DNA of 62,346 bases, counting the filler, from Collodictyon triciliatum (taxonomy: Eukaryota): NCBI GenBank assembly GCA_043381765.1. It is 11 parts of 11 records of this genome, joined end to end, with 100 filler letters (N's around TTAATTAATTAA, not from the genome) between each part and the next. Parts side by side here need not be neighbours in the genome. Positions count along the whole stretch, not along the records: positions 26,502 to 33,021 come from JBHJMP010004403.1; 10 more parts are not named here. The stretch is one strand, 5' to 3'. Each line of letters opens with the position of its first letter. The first letter of the stretch is position 1. Of the stretch, positions 6,530 to 39,738 are shown piece after piece. The position numbers were made by a program, and so were the translations under genes. The notes under the pieces are model-generated. The model was not told the DNA's origin. It ran no database searches and saw only the letters and a list, made by a program, of their open reading frames with translations.

Positions 6530-6629
6530 NNNNNNNNNNNNNNNNNNNNNNNNNNNNNNNNNNNNNNNNNNNNTTAATTAATTAANNNNNNNNNNNNNNN
6601 NNNNNNNNNNNNNNNNNNNNNNNNNNNNN
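6530..6629. other. Artificial contig linker N44-TTAATTAATTAA-N44 (also at 13156-13255, 19781-19880, 26402-26501, 33022-33121, 39639-39738, 46257-46356, 52872-52971, 59487-59586, 60911-61010)
   Basis: Identical 100-nt spacer with stops in all frames. Most contigs between spacers are 6526 to 6515 nt in roughly decreasing order; one is 1324 nt. Confidence 0.98.
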
Positions 6630-13155: not shown

Positions 13156-13255
13156 NNNNNNNNNNNNNNNNNNNNNNNNNNNNNNNNNNNNNNNNNNNNT
13201 TAATTAATTAANNNNNNNNNNNNNNNNNNNNNNNNNNNNNNNNNNNNNNNNNNNN

Positions 13256-19197: not shown

Positions 19198-19907
19198 AAG
19201 GCCTTTTTTTTTCTCGCCCAAGAGGGACACGCATTATAAATCAAAGCACAATGACAGGAAAGGATAATAATGACGCCGATTGGGAAAAAAAATGCGATAT
19301 TTTTAATTCACAGTATCTGGCAAAACATGTGCAAAACTACGATGGTTTGACCAAGGGGACAGCAGATAGCCGCATAAATCTGAGATTTATTCGATTTTAA
19401 CTTGATTATAGCCAATTATGACTAATCCTTCTAATTAATCATAGATATTCAGTCCTCATAATAAACAAAATTCAAACATACCATATTTTCCGCATTTGAT
19501 TTCCAGAAGCGAACCCTTTTTCCGAGAATTTATGTGTCATGAGAACAAATAAGGAAATATTAGTAATCTCTGTTTCTAAATAAGAAGTAGATTGCCACCG
19601 AATCAGCTCCTATGGGATCTTATCTCTTCGCGGCGGATTCAAGCAAGACCGCAAAATCAGACAGAAAAGCGACAGCGATGCACAAAAAACAAAAAGCAAA
19701 AAGCAAAAAGCAAAAAGCAAAAAACAAAAAACAAAAAACAAAAAACAAAAAACAAAAAACAAAAAACAAAAAACAAAAAANNNNNNNNNNNNNNNNNNNN
19801 NNNNNNNNNNNNNNNNNNNNNNNNTTAATTAATTAANNNNNNNNNNNNNNNNNNNNNNNNNNNNNNNNNNNNNNNNNNNNTGTATTTAGTAATTTGGAGT
19901 TTGTGCG

Positions 19908-26031: not shown

Positions 26032-26501
26032 CTACAACAGATTCACGATACGTGCGTGTATATTAAAATTTATTTTTATTTGTTATTCGAACGCAAAAGC
26101 ATCGGAGAAGTGAAAAGAATGTCGAGACAATGTGACTGATATTCATATCTGTTGTGGAAATGTTTCAGGGGTATGTCTTGTTTTAGTGACATAAATTACC
26201 TATTAGCACGGCCTGAAAAAACTTTAACTATTGTGTTTGATCTGATGTCCAATAATTTGATTACATTTTCTTCGCCACCAAAAGCAATTAAGTCGTTCTG
26301 TAGAATAGAGTGATATGAAAAAGATGGGGGGGGGGGGGGGGGTTTTTTTTTTTTTTTCCTCCTGGGGGGCTTAAAAAAAAAAAAAAAATTTTTAAAAAAA
26401 ANNNNNNNNNNNNNNNNNNNNNNNNNNNNNNNNNNNNNNNNNNNNTTAATTAATTAANNNNNNNNNNNNNNNNNNNNNNNNNNNNNNNNNNNNNNNNNNN
26501 N

Positions 26502-26565
<64 letters not shown>

Positions 26566-26959
26566 AAAAAAAAAACAAAATAAAAAACAAAAAAAAGAAT
26601 AAGAACAAGCAAGACGTGAAATAGAGTAGATAACAGATTCGGTTGGTTGTGAGACGCTATTTCGCAAAGTTTGGCCATGTTTCGCTCCTCTCCATTGTCA
26701 GGTTTTTGCGAACGAAAGGTTGTGCGATATGCGGTTATGATGATGAAAAAAAAAAAAAAACTTCGTCAGTTTCACAAAACGACACGCTCGTCGCAGAGAA
26801 ACACCGAGCAAATAATCAAAACAAAAATGAACGAAGAAAAAGTATGTGAAGGGACTAAAGAGTTGTTGTCTGATGTGTTATGTTGCTAGTCATTTGCAAG
26901 GACAATAACCAGCCCAGCAACAGTCTGACTGAATATAAGACGCTTTTCAAGGAGGATTG

Positions 26960-29586
26960 ATGTTGGGGTTCCTTCAGTGCGGTTTTCGCCTCGGCCAGTC
27001 AACTTGGAGACCAACCCTGAGCGCCATTTCAACGATCTCAAGTCGTCTGAAGCAGCCAAGCCCTGGAGTTTCGGGGTATCCAAGCCGCTTTTCTTGTCTT
27101 TCACGGAGGTTTTATGTCTTGGAAAATCGAGATTACTCGAAATCAGATGTAGCAAAGGTAAAACACGGAATAAAGATGGAAACGCAGGTCAAGCCAAAGC
27201 GTTCTTCTGGTTTTATAGATCGCCTTGTCTTCTTTTCCAATATCGGGCTTTTAGTCCTTGGACACAGTAGCCTAGTTCTTCGTCTTTCCTTTGCTGGATT
27301 TGTCATGTACACTTCAGGTTTGTTTTCCCATGCCATTGCACGAAATCTACAGCATTCAACTTTAGCATTATTATCTTATTTTATTATTATATCATAATAC
27401 TATTACCTGGATTCACTCGCCTCATGTGTTTTATGATTAATCAGACTTGTCACATTATTACATTATATTTATTAGTACAAAGAACATTTATTTATTTCTT
27501 AATCCAATCCTTTTAAAAGTAATGTTATTTGGAAGGAAGATTAAAAAAAAAACTAAAAAACTTATCGCGTTCGCTTTATCAGACCAGATTTATTTGCTTT
27601 GAGGCTGTGATTGACGTCTTCTGAAAACAAATCACGATTTAATCAATATCAATAGGTATTGGCGGGGAAACTCTGCTGCCCTCTTGGTTATCTCATTGGA
27701 TTTTTCAGAAAACTGCATTTACCATTCACTTTGAGAGTGCAAAAACTATTTGGTCAGAAAATGTTATTCAGTTTTCAAATATAAAGATCAAGAGGAACAA
27801 AGAAGATATGGATTTGTTGAATTATCACCCTTCATACTCTGAAATTGAGTTCTACGCCACAAAATTGCTCGTCCAGTTCTCTTTTGAATGGTTTCTTGAA
27901 GGTTTAGTAATATTTTTGACCTATTATTTTTCAGTAAGAATATTATCTTTAATGACACCCTCTTTGAATCGAATAAAGGAAAAAATATTTAATGACACAC
28001 AATCGTATAAATACAAATAATGCGGATATAATCAAAGAGAAATCAAACAAAATCTATACTCATTTTTATATTTTTTTTTTACTACAAGATTACATGTTTG
28101 TCGAAGTCTTATATCCAAATATAAATGTTTTCTTTGTCGATGTCTCGGACGTTCCTTGGCTGAGGCCCTCTGTTATGTTTTTGTTATCAGTTAGGACAGT
28201 TTTAACCGAAATTTCTATTGTAATTTAATCAGGAAAAGGATTCATCAAGCAAGTTGAAGCACATGATGTCATTTGGACATTCGATCGCCGCAAAATCCCG
28301 GATACTTTTGAAAGCCCTTATGTTGTGGATGATTCTAGCGCCACATTGTTCCACTTAAATTCATTTATCATACGAAATGCAGAAGTAAGAATTCTCTATC
28401 CAAACTTTCGCCCCGTCCACATCCATCTCTACAAGTTTGATTGTGATCGATTTCGTGATCGATGGGTCTTGCTGGACTTACTCACTGCAAAGACAGTTAT
28501 TGGAACTATTGATTCACACTTATTTTCTCTTCAGAAGCAAATTGGCCACGAGGTATGCAGCAACTGATTTCCTATACGACGAATTTATACCACCTTTTTA
28601 ACTTTGCTTGCTTTCAAAAATCTATCATAAAAATGAACATAATTCAACTCAACATGTTGCTACATTTATCATATTTATAGTCCCTAATTCGCATCGATTC
28701 CATAAATACCGATCTCATCGGAGGAGGAGAAAAAGGACAGTTAAAATGGGTTCTGGATGGTAGAGTTGACCAATTTATTCGCATATGTTGGACTCCAAAT
28801 CTTGACTACTGGGACACTCGGAAGTTGCCCGAGCATTGGGGGTCTCGAGAAGGTTTGTCTTATAGTTGTATCAGTCTTTTCAAGCATACAGAATCCCATG
28901 TCATTCAATTTAATTGCGGTGTTTATATTAGCTTATCACGTCCGTCTTGTATGCAAGCATATTCCTCATATTTAAACTCTGTATCACAGTTCTTATGAAC
29001 GCAAAGTTCGTATTCAAGGATTTGTACATGCGAGTTCCGTTGATGAATACAGAAATGTCATACATTCGCAGCGCTGTTATCCAACCTCTGATATTTTATC
29101 TCAACAATATCAACTATGCACCCGATTTTGACATTAAATTCTCTATTCCGCTGGCAAGTAGTTTGCTTTTTTTTTTCTCGACATATTTATTTTTTCCTTT
29201 CAATTTGATGTAGGCACAAATACTTTGTCAGTTCTTAACTACTCTGGTCTTATTTTTTACTCGAGACTTGGAACTATACTATTCCACTGATATAGTTATA
29301 TTGAAAACTTAGACATTCTAGCCCTGAAATAGCCTATTAGTCATGTTAATCCTTTTCATTTTCTTTTTAGCATGAGTTTTTGGATGCATGGTCATTCCAT
29401 GATACTTCCATCCCGCGCAAGGTTGTGTTGGAATGCGAAAGACAAGCGACCCAGGGTGATGAGCGCACGGCAAAGTCCAATTGGTTCCAAATGTATATCC
29501 TGGAGACGTCTGTTTTCTTGTACCAAAAATTTGTGGAGTCGTTTACCAGGCTCTTGGATTTCTCTTACAGGTGGTTTGCATACTAG
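26960..29586 (+). CDS. MDM31: Mdm31/Mdm32-family mitochondrial inner-membrane protein, multi-exon
   Basis: Arg/Ser-rich presequence and TM segment, then FHLNSFIIRNAEV..YPNFRPVHIHLYKFDCDRFRDRWVLLDLL, RIDSINTDLI..GQLKWVLDGRVD, KDLYMRVPLMNTEMSYIRSAVIQPLIFYLN and EFLDAWSFHDT, all in the order seen in fungal Mdm31. Confidence 0.85.
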
Positions 29587-30112
29587 ATCGAACCTTGGCT
29601 AGTTTTATCAATGATTCTCTGAAGGACACCTTGTCAGCCTATTTTAATGTCCATAGTAGCCATATAAATTTTTCTTCCTTGAATTCATCTTAACGAAGTC
29701 TTTTCAGTTTTGTTTCCAATTATTTTCCCAACAGCGCTATACAGCATCTATATCTTCTCTTTACTCTATATCAAATACTTGCTTATAATCCCTCTTACTG
29801 GGTATTACTTTCGTTAAATATTGATACATCAAGGAATGAACAACATCGTAAATTAGTTACAATTTCGAGATGTGCTGATGGCTATTAGCTATATGTAATT
29901 ATGCATTATTCAATTTCGCTTTTTATATGATTATTGGTAATTTTTTCTTTTTTTATGATTATTGGTAAATTATTATCAAAGGATTGATTTCCAAAAAACT
30001 TTTTTTTTTCATTTTGTGAGTTGGAAATATTTGTAATTCAGCGGTTAAGATACAGTATTTCTTATCTATGTAAATGCGGAATCCTTACATGCACATATGA
30101 TGGCCTTGTTTT

Positions 30113-30240
30113 TATTATATCCGACTAGAAGGGGTATACCAATAGATAGATTGGTAAACCTGGTGCGCTGGTATCCAAGGTCTCGCCACCTTTTTTCACA
30201 AAGGTCGTGTAGTGGTGATGAGTGCCAGGAAAGACCCAAC
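30113..30240 (-). ncRNA. Candidate Fanzor omega-RNA scaffold / element right end
   Basis: Lies just 3' of the nuclease RuvC-III segment. Stems GGUCU/AGACC and ACCUUU/AAAGGU, a 10/11-bp hairpin (30133-30143 with 30150-30160) and a crossing CCUGG/CCAGG pairing. Confidence 0.55.
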
Positions 30241-30254
30241 AGTCTGTTTTTTAG

Positions 30255-32131
30255 AAGAAGGTGTACGCGCATATTTTGAAGGATTAAAAGAGCTTTGTTG
30301 AGTATATTTTTAGCGCTGTTAGAGTCCTTTGTCAAGAATACACTTTGTTTACTCTATGAGCGATTGTGTTCTTTACACATGAGACATCTATACATTTTTT
30401 TTTTTTTGTATTTCCTTTAGGTGTCATATATTTCAATTCTTTTTCGCAGTTGAAACACATCTTGGAGGTTCTAAATTCATCTACACTAACTGCTTCAAAG
30501 CATTTGTATAGCATTTTTTGTAACCGTCTTCCGATTGTTGCCGTTAAATGTTTCATCGGAGATTTTCTACTTCAGTCCCCATACGCCAATACAACATCCT
30601 TGCCAAATGTCTTTTCGATTCGGTCCATAAACAACTGTTCACTTCTTTTTGTATTAACATACTGTCTCCACCTCATCTTTCGAAAAGTTCGTGCTCATAA
30701 AATCTGGATAGTTCTATCTGGCATCTTGATTTCATAGATACATATTTTCGAAATCTTTCATAATCGGCCGTGCGTGAATTATGTTTACTCAGTTCTGTCT
30801 CTAAATCGATTAAAGATATTCTTAATGTCTCAAACTGCTGATTCTCTTCAAAAGTCATGGCAACAAAAGAAACAGCACTTTGTAAACCTGTTGCCATGCA
30901 TATCCCCGAAGCATTGTGCTTTTCTTTTTTTCTCGCGCATGAGTATTTTGTGATTTTCAAGAGGTTTGCTATCATGTCCTGTTTGGTGTGCTGAATAACG
31001 TAATTTCTTACCTGTCTCCGCCACCATGCAAACAAATTAAACTTGCCTGCGTCCACTCAAACTATTATTATTTTTCGCTAATAAAGATAACTGCTCTTCG
31101 GAAAGTTCATCTATACATAAATATATTCTTGGGTCTTTTGACTAAGTTAGGATTTTTGAATTTGAAATACCTTTCTTTTCAAACAATAATGACACCGCCA
31201 AGCCGTCTGTTTGTATCGTGTATTTAAAATTGTAGTCTTTTTGATGAAAGACCCTCTTCTTCATTTCAAAGAAATCATCCCATAGGGCCTCTTACCATCC
31301 TGATATATTCTCCAATAATTTTGGCTTTCCAGATAATACTAATAGACATATCAAACATGCGGTATCTAGAGTAATATGACGTGATATATTGGTAGTTCTT
31401 ATGGGGATTGGTTGCAACAGTTTGGCTCTAATGTCCTCAAAAATGCGATTCGTGTAAATCAGACATGGTATGCACTTATTTGGATTGACTTTGACGTCAT
31501 ATTTGATATCATTTACAAATCGCTGGGAATGATATGATGCAAATGCGTTATAGCCCATTCTTTATATTGCTATGGTATTTCGAGATTCTTGAAGATGGCT
31601 TTTCTTATCTTTCGTAACTCAGCCTTTTCAATAGCTATCTGTCATATTCTCATCTTTAGGAACTGTTTGATTTATAAAGTGCAGTAACCTCTTTACAAAT
31701 GTTCCTTAATGTCATTGTGATAAGCTTTAACATTTGCTTCGCCAAGTTAATACACGAGACAGTATAACCAACGGAAAGCGTTCTTCTCGGGACAAAAGGA
31801 ATCGAAAATCATTGAGATAAAAAGTCATCATGTCATCTCTCAAACCTGGTTTTTTTAATCTTGCGGGTCTATCTTGTGAAGCTACTCCGACTGTCTTCAA
31901 AGCGTACAAAAAACATTTCATCGATTGTTGGGAGTTGTTGTGATTTCAATGTGTCCATCTTGCGAACAGATAAGCGTCGGTAACCAAATTATGACACAAT
32001 AAAGCCGTATCGTTGGTTTTGTCATAGTCATCCGCATTATTTACAATCGACTTTCGAGAGGTTTTCACATTTCGATAGTCTGGTTTTACCGACTTCAGAT
32101 TCTCAGACTCAAGATGTTTTCTTTTCTTCAT
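30255..32131 (-). pseudogene. Fanzor1: Fanzor1 (eukaryotic TnpB-derived RNA-guided RuvC endonuclease), intronless, multiply frameshifted
   Basis: Joining frames gives KTSRKSI, LPTIDE, QPIPIRTTNISRHITLDTA, TIQTDGLAVSLLF, RuvC-I IIV*VDAGKFNL, FRKMRWRQY, LAYGD*S, RuvC-II VDEFRTSKMCFNC, RCLMCKEH and RuvC-III KDSNSAKNIL. Confidence 0.9.
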
Positions 32132-32852
32132 GTGAAAGTCTTTGTTTTACTTTTTCCTTTAGAAAAGTACCGATTTAACTATTTTAGTAAAATTTTATTC
32201 AATCAGTCAATTTAATACATGAATAAGAAAACTGCATAAAATCAATTTAGGTAAAATTGAGCATCTACCAAGGCTTTCATAATGTGCGCATTGTAGCAGA
32301 CAAACAAACAAAGTTTTTTTTATAGGTGATTGAGACAAAACCCTGAGAGCCGACTCGGCGAGTTCGAAGGGCCAGCCGTATAGCCATTGCAGCTGAAAGT
32401 CAGCATATCAGCCGCAGACAACATGATTACCGCCGCAAGTGTGGATAGTATGCTTTTTTGAAATGCGTGTTTGGTGGGAGGTTTGTAGGGTGGGTTCTGC
32501 TGGGTCAACGCAAGAGCTTGTTTGTAATTTTTGAATTTTAATTCGGAACAAGATTTACATAAAGGAAAAATAAAATATAAGCTGATTATAGGAATGGAAT
32601 GAGATTATAAAGTATTTTTAGCCTTATTATATATACTAATCGTACTACTATATTATTCATATTGCTTCTTGGACTCATCAAAGCTACTGCTTCCGTTAAT
32701 CCAGATTTAATTCGATGTTTGTCTGTGCAATAAACTGTTACATACGGGTACACTTTCGTTGTATATAAAGTATTGTGCCTTGAAAGGGATAAACCAAGTT
32801 CGTCACAACCTTTGCAATGAAGTTTATCCATTTACAGGCTGAATGAGACCGA

Positions 32853-33021
32853 AGAAAGGAGAAAGGAGAAAGGAGAAAGGAGAAAGGAGAAAGGAGAAAG
32901 GAGAAAGGAGAAAGGAGAAAGGAGAAAGGAGAAAGGAGAAAGGAGAAGGAAAGGAAAGGAAAGGAAAGGAAAGAAAAGAAAAGAAAAGAAAAGAAAAGAA
33001 AAGAAAAGAAAAGAAAAGAAA
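32853..33021. repeat. Purine microsatellite (GAAAGGA)n-(GAAAG)n-(GAAAA)n
   Basis: Read directly. Confidence 0.95.
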
Positions 33022-33255
33022 NNNNNNNNNNNNNNNNNNNNNNNNNNNNNNNNNNNNNNNNNNNNTTAATTAATTAANNNNNNNNNNNNNNNNNNNNNNN
33101 NNNNNNNNNNNNNNNNNNNNNAAAGAGAGAGAAAAAAAAGAGAGAAAAAAAAAGAGAGAAAAAAAAAAAGAGAGAAAAAAAAGAGAGAGAAAAAAAAAGA
33201 GAGAAAAAAAAAAGAGAGAAAAAAGGAGTAGGGCATGATTAGCACAAGCACGTAC

Positions 33256-33527
33256 TGCAGTTGATTGAAGCTCAGATCCAGGTAGCGGACAGACGTTGCA
33301 TACTGCTCCACAAGCTCCTCCGGAAACGCCTCGAGCTGCTGATCAACCACGTGGAGAGCGCCGTCTTCAAAGTGGAAGGACAAACCAGCGGGCTCTGCCT
33401 CTGTCTCTGCCTGCTGATACTCCTGCTGGTATTCCGGCTGCTCTGTTTCCGCTGGTGCTAACGTGGCTGCCGGCGCTGCCTCGTGCGTTGTCTCCACCTT
33501 CTTTGTACGCGAGCGATTCGATTCCAT
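33256..33527 (-). CDS. First exon of an LRR protein (LRMDA/C10orf11-like); rest off contig
   Basis: MESNRS...LHVVDQQLEAFPEELVEQYATSVRYLDLSFNQLQ followed by a GTACGT donor. Confidence 0.65.
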
Positions 33528-33654
33528 GCCTGTTGTACTTTTTGTGACTCTCCTTTTGTCTTTTTCCTCTTCTTCTTGTTCTTCTTCCGCCTTTTCTTGC
33601 TTCCTTCTTTCTTTGTGTAGTTCCTTCCCTAAGTGATAGACGCAGTCTTTTATC

Positions 33655-33685
<31 letters not shown>

Positions 33686-34508
33686 GCAAGGGTTGTCGGA
33701 TCTTCACCACCTCCCACGACGGAGGCATTTGGATCTCATATGAGTCTGCTGTTAGTTCAACTGAGTACCCCAGACTACACGCACAAAGAACCCAATATAA
33801 ATAATAAAAATAAAAATAAAAAAAAGAAGAGAGGAGAGGAATACAAAACGCGAGGTCAGAGGAGGCGACAGAAGAGAAGTGATGGGGTGCGGCGTTACAG
33901 GGTGAAAAGTCTTGTGCAAGAAAACAAGGCAAGCCAGCATTGCATGATGAGCTTCTGCCTGACTCGCGCCAACCGCACGCCCGACAGGCAAACGCCCTGC
34001 AGGAATGGCGCGGCCGCGTGGGGTTCGCGTTTTCGGATTAGGCCGCCCTGCTTTGAATCTTGTACCTGCCACTTTCCAGTTGATCAAACGGAGCGGAAGG
34101 CGCAGGGAGAAAAAAAAAAAAAAGGAAAATAGGAAAGGAATGTCTTTTATCATATTTTGGAATTTCTTACTTAATATTACTAGTGTGGAAAAGGGTGAGG
34201 CGAAGCCCTGCTGTGCTTTTCTTTTTCCTGCAAGATTTAAGCCAACGGCAACAACAATCCCGATCGTTGTGTTGGGATCGCAGGAGCAGCACGCGAGGGT
34301 GGGTTGCGGAGGGGTCTTTTTTTTTTTTTTTCGGTGTTTCGCATCTTGTTTTTTGGTTGATGTACTTTGGTGGCCTGGTGACTCGACTTGGACGCCAAAA
34401 ATATGGACACGCAACCATATCGTTTTTGAATCCAACAAAAGTGACACGCTCCAACGATTGCTCCTGTGATATTCGTCCATACTACCCCCAACCTTGGAAA
34501 TGAGATTC

Positions 34509-39457: not shown

Positions 39458-39738
39458 TCTTTTTCGTCTTTTTTGTCTTTTTTGTCATTTTTGTCTTTTT
39501 CGTCTTTTTCGTCTTTTTCGTCTTTTTCGTCTTTTTCGTCTTTTTCGTCTTTTTTTGTCTACTTAGTCTTTCTGTATTTCTGTATTTCGTTTACGTTTTC
39601 GTTTTCTCTATTTTTTTTTTGTCTACTTATTTTTCTTCNNNNNNNNNNNNNNNNNNNNNNNNNNNNNNNNNNNNNNNNNNNNTTAATTAATTAANNNNNN
39701 NNNNNNNNNNNNNNNNNNNNNNNNNNNNNNNNNNNNNN

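Follow-up and report, generated by a model that had tools for sequence, protein, structure and literature searches.

A decayed Fanzor1 transposon copy in Collodictyon triciliatum and the candidate omega-RNA scaffold template at its 3′ end

Does the block at the 3′ end of a Fanzor-like gene in the eukaryote Collodictyon triciliatum (GenBank assembly GCA_043381765.1) encode the guide RNA of that nuclease? The block (positions 30095–30240, minus strand) lies in a stretch of 62,346 nucleotides, filler included, which we call the window, and a preliminary description had read it as an omega-RNA scaffold with a pseudoknot and an adjoining guide. The window strings together separate contigs of ~6.5 kb and one of 1.3 kb, with ten linkers of the form N44-TTAATTAATTAA-N44 between them and simple repeats at the ends of most contigs; reading features across the contig joints is invalid. 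Comparison with intact relatives, with further copies of the same family and with shuffled controls leads us to favour, with some reserve, the view that 30240–30124 is the decayed template of a Fanzor1 omega-RNA scaffold and that ~30123–30108 is its former guide. That these particular stems belong to the scaffold, and where the guide starts, we infer. The coordinates of the features discussed below are collected in Table 1.

Table 1. Features of the Fanzor1 locus, of the assembled window and of the metagenomic relatives
Feature	Position	Strand	Details
Candidate SL1-like two-tier stem-loop	30179–30236	−	Putative outer stem 30236–30231 (GGUCUU) / 30184–30179 (GAGACC), five Watson–Crick pairs and one G–U pair
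Inner hairpin ACCUUU-GUGAAA-AAAGGU	30188–30205	−	Letters confirmed
Terminal 10-of-11-bp hairpin	30133–30160	−	Loop 30149–30144; −9.5 kcal/mol
Proposed pseudoknot partners CCUGG / CCAGG	30229–30225 / 30163–30159	−	Present, at chance level
Fanzor1 pseudogene	30196–32131	−	ATG 32131–32129 to family stop TGA 30198–30196; from tblastn of intact relatives
Zone where family similarity stops, probable right end	30122–30147	.	X2/X4 depth and X3 loose end
Flank for guide if the right end is near 30124	30095–30123	−	Would follow from the 14–15 nt rule
Linker N44-TTAATTAATTAA-N44	26402–26501	.	Borders the 6520-bp contig 26502–33021; twin linker 33022–33121
Assembly linkers	6530–6629, 13156–13255, 19781–19880, 26402–26501, 33022–33121, 39639–39738, 46257–46356, 52872–52971, 59487–59586, 60911–61010		
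Intact mariner-type Fanzor1 elements, lake and sea metagenomes	L001 174–3503; L007 1257–4572; L051/L052 1251–4571		

Judged by protein similarity, the minus-strand gene is a relative of Fanzor1, but a pseudogene. Tblastn searches of the window with two intact relatives gave E 8.9e-147 for P0159 (648 aa), the closer one, and E 3.6e-77 for P0003 (634 aa), the latter over residues 3–593. P0003 itself matches Fanzor1 proteins of solved structure, namely SpuFz1 (8gkh; E 9.2e-37, residues 14–607), the protein of Parasitella (PpFz1; E 7.2e-34) and that of Guillardia (GtFz1; E 7e-16), and these matches together bear out the earlier assignment of a Fanzor relative to the minus strand. The Fanzor1 protein motif has been described as D ... 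[TS][TS]-x-x-C4 zinc finger ... RD (Bao and Jurka 2013, PMC3627910). In the gene we found VDAGKFN, DEFRTSKMCFNC and YRCLMC, with KDSNSAKNI in the place of RD and with the motifs spread over different frames. An exhaustive protein search with a 121-aa piece yielded 1252 relatives (E ≤ 0.001); word-based protein searches with a 127-aa piece and with the 95-aa tail frame gave no matches, and Pfam returned for one of eight pieces a weak Cas12f1-like TNB match (E 0.004), under the cut-off. No further Fanzor copies were found in the window, where P0003 matches 30288–32128 alone. An nhmmer match at 58187–58205 was rejected as a further copy; it lies beside a simple repeat, without neighbouring motifs.

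The decay of the gene is evident in its reading frame. No intact open reading frame for the nuclease is present: P0003 aligns to the window in four separate pieces, between them using three frames and crossing 12 in-frame stops, and the copy carries at least three frame changes. A variant genetic code with TGA read as tryptophan, which was prompted by GD*S in the gene at the site of GDWS in relatives, is excluded, because the in-frame stops are a mixture of TGA, TAA and TAG and stand opposite many different residues, as expected of decay. Comparison with the tail of P0159 (... KKQAVGYSSTALTVTHKRMRM) indicates that the family frame of the window (... KKQTVGSFLALITTTRPL) terminates at the TGA at 30198–30196, with a possible extra frame slip at the gene tail, into EKRWRD. 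The block had been placed right after the nuclease; it does stand at the 3′ end of the gene, but the frame ends inside it, and on this tail comparison the block overlaps the last ~15 codons rather than following the gene.

This position is the one at which omega-RNAs of Fanzor1 are encoded (PMC10432273, PMC10530073), with a template at the 3′ end of the gene that is described as running through the right inverted repeat (PMC10432273). The block lies on the gene strand, overlaps the 3′ end and reaches the probable right end of the element, and the preliminary description was right in this respect. Among known systems, SpuFz1 (PDB 8GKH; Saito et al. 2023, PMC10432273) belongs to the same protein family, via P0003; its scaffold is reported to be 75 nt long, to span the 3′ inverted repeat and to use a guide of 14–15 nt. 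The distance from the stop to the right end would also be similar: a right end at 30124 would make it ~72 nt, and the corresponding region in Spu-1 is ~80 nt long. Unlike SpuFz1, the present copy is a pseudogene with no inverted repeat found and is known from DNA alone, and its candidate scaffold takes in the last ~15 codons; the omega-RNA of SpuFz1 is located past the stop. In its overlap with the coding end it is more like the omega-RNA of GtFz1 (PDB 9cer; Xu et al. 2024, PMC11423790), which is described as overlapping 17 codons (PMC10432273), although the protein similarity to GtFz1 is weaker (P0003, E 7e-16). Fanzor1 omega-RNAs are described as having a conserved first stem-loop and a variable remainder (PMC11423790).

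The composition and the individual stems of the block are largely as first described. With a GC content of 0.481 (30133–30240), the block is GC-richer than its flanks (0.246 at 29900–30094 and 0.31 at 30241–30440), and ~5% of the 108-nt windows of the contig reach this value. All named stem letters were found in place on the minus strand: GGTCT at 30236–30232 and AGACC at 30183–30179, ACCTTT/GTGAAA/AAAGGT at 30205–30188, and CCTGG at 30229–30225 with CCAGG at 30163–30159. The outer stem GGUCUU/GAGACC of Table 1 is the GGUCU/AGACC stem noted earlier, lengthened by the G–U pair and with 46 nt between its strands. In the minimum free energy fold, the inner hairpin ACCUUU/AAAGGU does not appear, its place being taken by a competing 5-bp hairpin, CACGA-CCU-UUGUG (30209–30197). 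The tail alignment described below suggests that the A-run of the inner hairpin corresponds to the unpaired A-rich linker of the relatives, which would also favour the competing CACGA/UUGUG hairpin.

These stems may, on the other hand, carry no RNA meaning. According to this main rival, which we consider possible but the less probable reading, the block is a decayed coding tail followed by untranslated or terminal DNA, its stems are chance pairings, and any scaffold of the family is organized differently. Several controls speak for it. For the whole 146 nt, the minimum free energy is −34.4 kcal/mol; shuffles average −30.3 (sd 3.4), which makes z = −1.21, and 21 of 200 reach or pass the stability of the block, so that the fold does not rise above chance. 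The proposed pseudoknot fares no better: a 5-bp complement of this type, between the loop and downstream sequence, occurs in 736 of 1000 shuffles of the block, with a mean of 1.77 per shuffle, and the pseudoknot is thus a chance complement, unsupported. A 5-bp outer stem around a 6-bp hairpin is mildly unusual: 35 of 1000 shuffles contain one, as do 31 of the 624 windows of 108 nt on the contig. The higher GC, too, would be expected for a coding tail beside a 25%-GC flank. The stability of the terminal hairpin is equalled or exceeded in 33 of the 12984 28-nt windows of the contig; across both strands of the window, with low-complexity sequence excluded, there are 297 hairpins with 10 of 11 pairs. 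An Rfam search of 28000–33000 gave no match at E ≤ 1.

What argues for a scaffold at this place comes mainly from intact relatives. A metagenome scan recovered 80 loci with intact single-exon genes that are 37–55% identical to the window's piece. Elements of the P0003 group are ~3.3 kb long, have 31-bp inverted repeats at their ends, end on the right 46–48 nt past the stop, and carry mariner-like transposase fragments on the opposite strand; inverted ends or transposase pieces were seen in relatives L001, L007, L051, L052, L009, and L012. Going by the descriptions, inverted ends, opposite-strand pieces of a mariner-like DDE transposase and a Fanzor1 gene that adjoins the right end liken these metagenomic relatives to the mariner/Tc1-type Fanzor1 elements PGv-1, PUl-1, and HMa-1 (Bao and Jurka 2013, PMC3627910) and to Fanzor1c (Jiang et al. 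2023, PMC10530073). The window copy differs from the mariner/Tc1-type elements in that inverted ends, a TA duplication and a transposase were not found on its 6.5-kb contig. The contig breaks off in simple repeats ~700 nt upstream of the gene, and so may just lack the left end.

From L001–L080, we compiled a set of 55 scaffold regions. Among 71 distinct tails, conservation at the nucleotide level begins ~70 nt ahead of the right-end region and continues as far as the inverted repeat, wherever the stop falls. Within this conserved stretch, one subgroup reads the motif GTCTTTCAC as S-S-F-T and another reads it as G-L-S, and the use of two frames, together with a stop at varying places, points to a constraint on nucleotides and not on protein. 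The same stretch can form a two-tier stem-loop. Covariation was assessed in 36 distinct relatives, with rows picked by motif matching; six of the 55 scaffolds that fell off the end pattern, 12 duplicate stem-loop segments and L014, which has a long insertion, were left out of this alignment (A3). Over 12 pairs, 94.7% of positions are paired, compared with 77.1% in shuffles and 45–55% with a slid partner; 11 of the 12 pairs change on both sides, and none of 500 shuffles reaches the observed value. The covarying inner helix has seven pairs in most relatives, the number reported for stem-loop SL1 of GtFz1, which is a resemblance and not a test. In the 13 closest scaffolds, a further hairpin covaries (three of four pairs change on both sides), and a fourth helix beside the inverted repeat is weak, with 73.8% paired. 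By this comparative evidence, the relatives have, at a place equivalent to the block, a covarying stem-loop into which the last codons of the gene extend. A stem-loop that covaries and is read in different frames by subgroup is good comparative evidence for a guide-RNA scaffold.

To what extent does the block itself correspond to this scaffold? A MAFFT alignment of the tails sets VGYSST and HKRMRM of P0159 against the codons that in the relatives supply the two arms of the covarying outer stem. At these places, the window reads VGSF ... EKRWRD, and GGUCUU and GAGACC can form six pairs. Once the protein tails are aligned via P0159, the candidate outer stem therefore appears to sit where the covarying outer stem of the relatives sits, on the codons concerned, which speaks against chance stems. 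In BLASTP, the similarity to P0003 extends no further than residue 593 and leaves out the tail, so that the positional homology rests on a weak tail alignment. Another register, with GGGTC as the 3′ strand of the relatives' stem (CGTAC ... AAAAAAC ... GGGTC, by eye), was rejected, since it needs a deletion of 14 codons, whereas the P0159 tail alignment keeps the lengths.

The interior of the window's stem-loop, 46 nt long, is arranged unlike that of any relative, and four homology tests against the relatives' scaffolds were negative at the block, in agreement with chance stems. A covariance model of the covarying stem-loop (R1) gave 34 matches at E ≤ 10 over the window, none of them at the block. 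In a search confined to 30090–30300 (211 nt), its best match reached 4.0 bits (E 0.32) upstream of the block, and 30188–30205 was aligned to the inner helix at a mere 3.1 bits (E 0.6). A second model of the whole scaffold of the 13 closest relatives (R2) gave 15 matches at E ≤ 10 over the contig, with none at the block, and an nhmmer search with the 55-sequence profile had no hit there. Finally, when the block was aligned locally to each of the 55 scaffolds, the top score was 22, which 85 of 300 shuffles and 229 of 291 random contig windows also attained. The proposal of an omega-RNA scaffold thus stands in part: the position at the 3′ end of the gene, the covarying relatives and the placement of the outer stem agree with it, but the fold, the pseudoknot and recognition by every model do not. 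The best R2 match, insignificant at 9.3 bits (E 0.63), falls at the start of the Fanzor gene (32062–32171, minus strand), where the letters AAAAAGTAAAAC ... GACTTTCAC echo scaffold motifs; both are probably due to chance.

Where does the element end? Contigs from two small runs, X2 and X4, show that the element family is a high-copy repeat, with 370 and 350 contigs on the element, mostly at <95% identity. Their cover reaches down to about 30150. Summed depth in X2 and X4 falls from 142.8 and 108.4 (30156–30262) to 11.6 and 9.75 (30049–30155) and to 0 below 30049. In the deep metagenome X3, near-identical contigs cross the block into the flank (29980–30203, four differences), and a diverged copy has a loose end that could be read by eye. 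This copy shares 19 of 20 letters with the window in 30124–30143, a segment that comprises the 3′ arm of the terminal hairpin and the next nine bases; it differs at five of eight positions over 30144–30151 (the hairpin loop and one closing pair) and again at 30123 and 30122, which are the only two "flank" bases visible. For the terminal 30 nt, the X3 copy is the one readable second copy, the evidence from the window's own family otherwise consisting of the depth tables. Similarity among family copies ends near 30147–30124, within or just past the block, as the preliminary description had anticipated.

Relative to the terminal hairpin, the X3 copy is changed at four of six loop positions and at two of 22 stem positions, with one pair broken. 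It fits a right end near 30124 and a hairpin with a freely varying loop, in this one copy, and the concentration of changes in the loop is at odds with chance stems. A guide of 14–15 nt is described as lying beyond the right end of Fanzor elements (PMC10432273). The guide had been placed roughly within 30095–30124; the departure of the second copy at 30123 would put it at ~30123–30108, a location that is plausible but unproven. We looked on the 6.5-kb contig for an inverted repeat matching the right end and found none. The sequence 30126–30096 was also considered as a degenerate inverted repeat (AGTCGG ... CAAGG, 16 of 31 positions by eye), which neither nhmmer nor R2 supports. For closer DNA relatives, pattern scans of genome contigs and of viral contigs gave no matches, and scans with family-specific peptides gave 20 and 156 pattern matches, none of which was confirmed.

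The small runs also contain rearranged copies. Some X2/X4 contigs join 30252 straight to 30400 or 30503 and keep up to 83 nt on the side of the block, and further recurrent joints connect 32166 to 32277, 32330 or 32342. These joints suggest internally deleted derivatives of the family with common breakpoints. That the side of the block is retained in contigs skipping 30253–30399 or 30253–30502 again counts against a block of chance stems. Upstream of the gene, at 32403–32500 and beyond, the summed X2/X4 depth is ~500, compared with ~200 over the gene; this stretch may be part of another version of the element that is more abundant and perhaps has no nuclease.

A conserved 3′ block could alternatively act as DNA, as a subterminal site bound by the transposase and accompanied by a terminal hairpin or inverted repeat, in a cut-and-paste element. 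The relatives are of mariner type and their last 31 nt are inverted repeats, and the template of the guide RNA is described as overlapping the transposon end in Fanzor elements (PMC10530073). The end of the window copy, however, has no inverted partner on the contig, and the covariation in the relatives keeps pairing within the strand, which argues for RNA or single-stranded folding rather than for protein sites on duplex DNA; we consider this reading improbable. Least probable of all is a scaffold still in use, in which a nuclease-less "ghost" copy would be transcribed and supply a guide RNA in trans to an intact Fanzor1 encoded elsewhere in the genome: nuclease-less ghost loci acting in trans are described in Spizellomyces (PMC10432273), the family is high-copy, an intact close relative exists (P0159, 648 aa) and contigs with internal skips retain the 3′ block, but no intact copy was seen from the same genome, divergence has carried the copy beyond the reach of every model, and its fold stability is not beyond chance.

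On the preferred reading of a decayed scaffold template, the block would be where a dead copy of a high-copy Fanzor1 transposon ends on its 3′ side: the last ~15 codons and then ~70 nt, up to a right end near 30124. Transcription in the active ancestor would have covered this stretch, with or after the gene, and the transcript would have folded into an SL1-like two-tier stem-loop, whose outer stem may survive as GGUCUU/GAGACC, followed by a hairpin. Read-through past the right end would then have added ~15 nt of flank as the guide of the nuclease. In the copy at hand, the nuclease has been destroyed and divergence has left the scaffold unrecognizable to the relatives' models, so that nothing functions in cis. 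The general plan is that of the ISDra2 TnpB omega-RNA, which comes from the right end of its element, overlaps the 3′ end of the gene and contains a pseudoknot. The present block shares this plan, while the pseudoknot proposed for it is at chance level; in the main text of the Fanzor1 structure paper, the word "pseudoknot" does not occur (PMC11423790).

The type of system is already known, and the copy adds a decayed eukaryotic member to it. As a dead transposon tail, the copy itself is of little importance. Mariner-type Fanzor1 elements are widespread in lake and sea metagenomes, and the scaffold of the relatives provides an annotation template for such elements. More speculatively, hundreds of nuclease-less or internally deleted Fanzor1 copies that keep the 3′ block could form, in this freshwater eukaryote, a large pool of "ghost" guide-RNA genes serving a few intact nucleases in trans, with a scaffold whose much enlarged first stem-loop overlaps the coding tail, an idea to which we give little credence.

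Two features on other contigs of the chain were recorded in passing. At 44322–44993, there is a tandem array of at least seven copies of a 69-nt unit (repeat family D8). The neighbouring contig has a long open frame on the minus strand (33066–34037), which includes a stretch resembling leucine-rich repeats (LDLSFNQLQ) and acidic runs and is unrelated to the Fanzor block.
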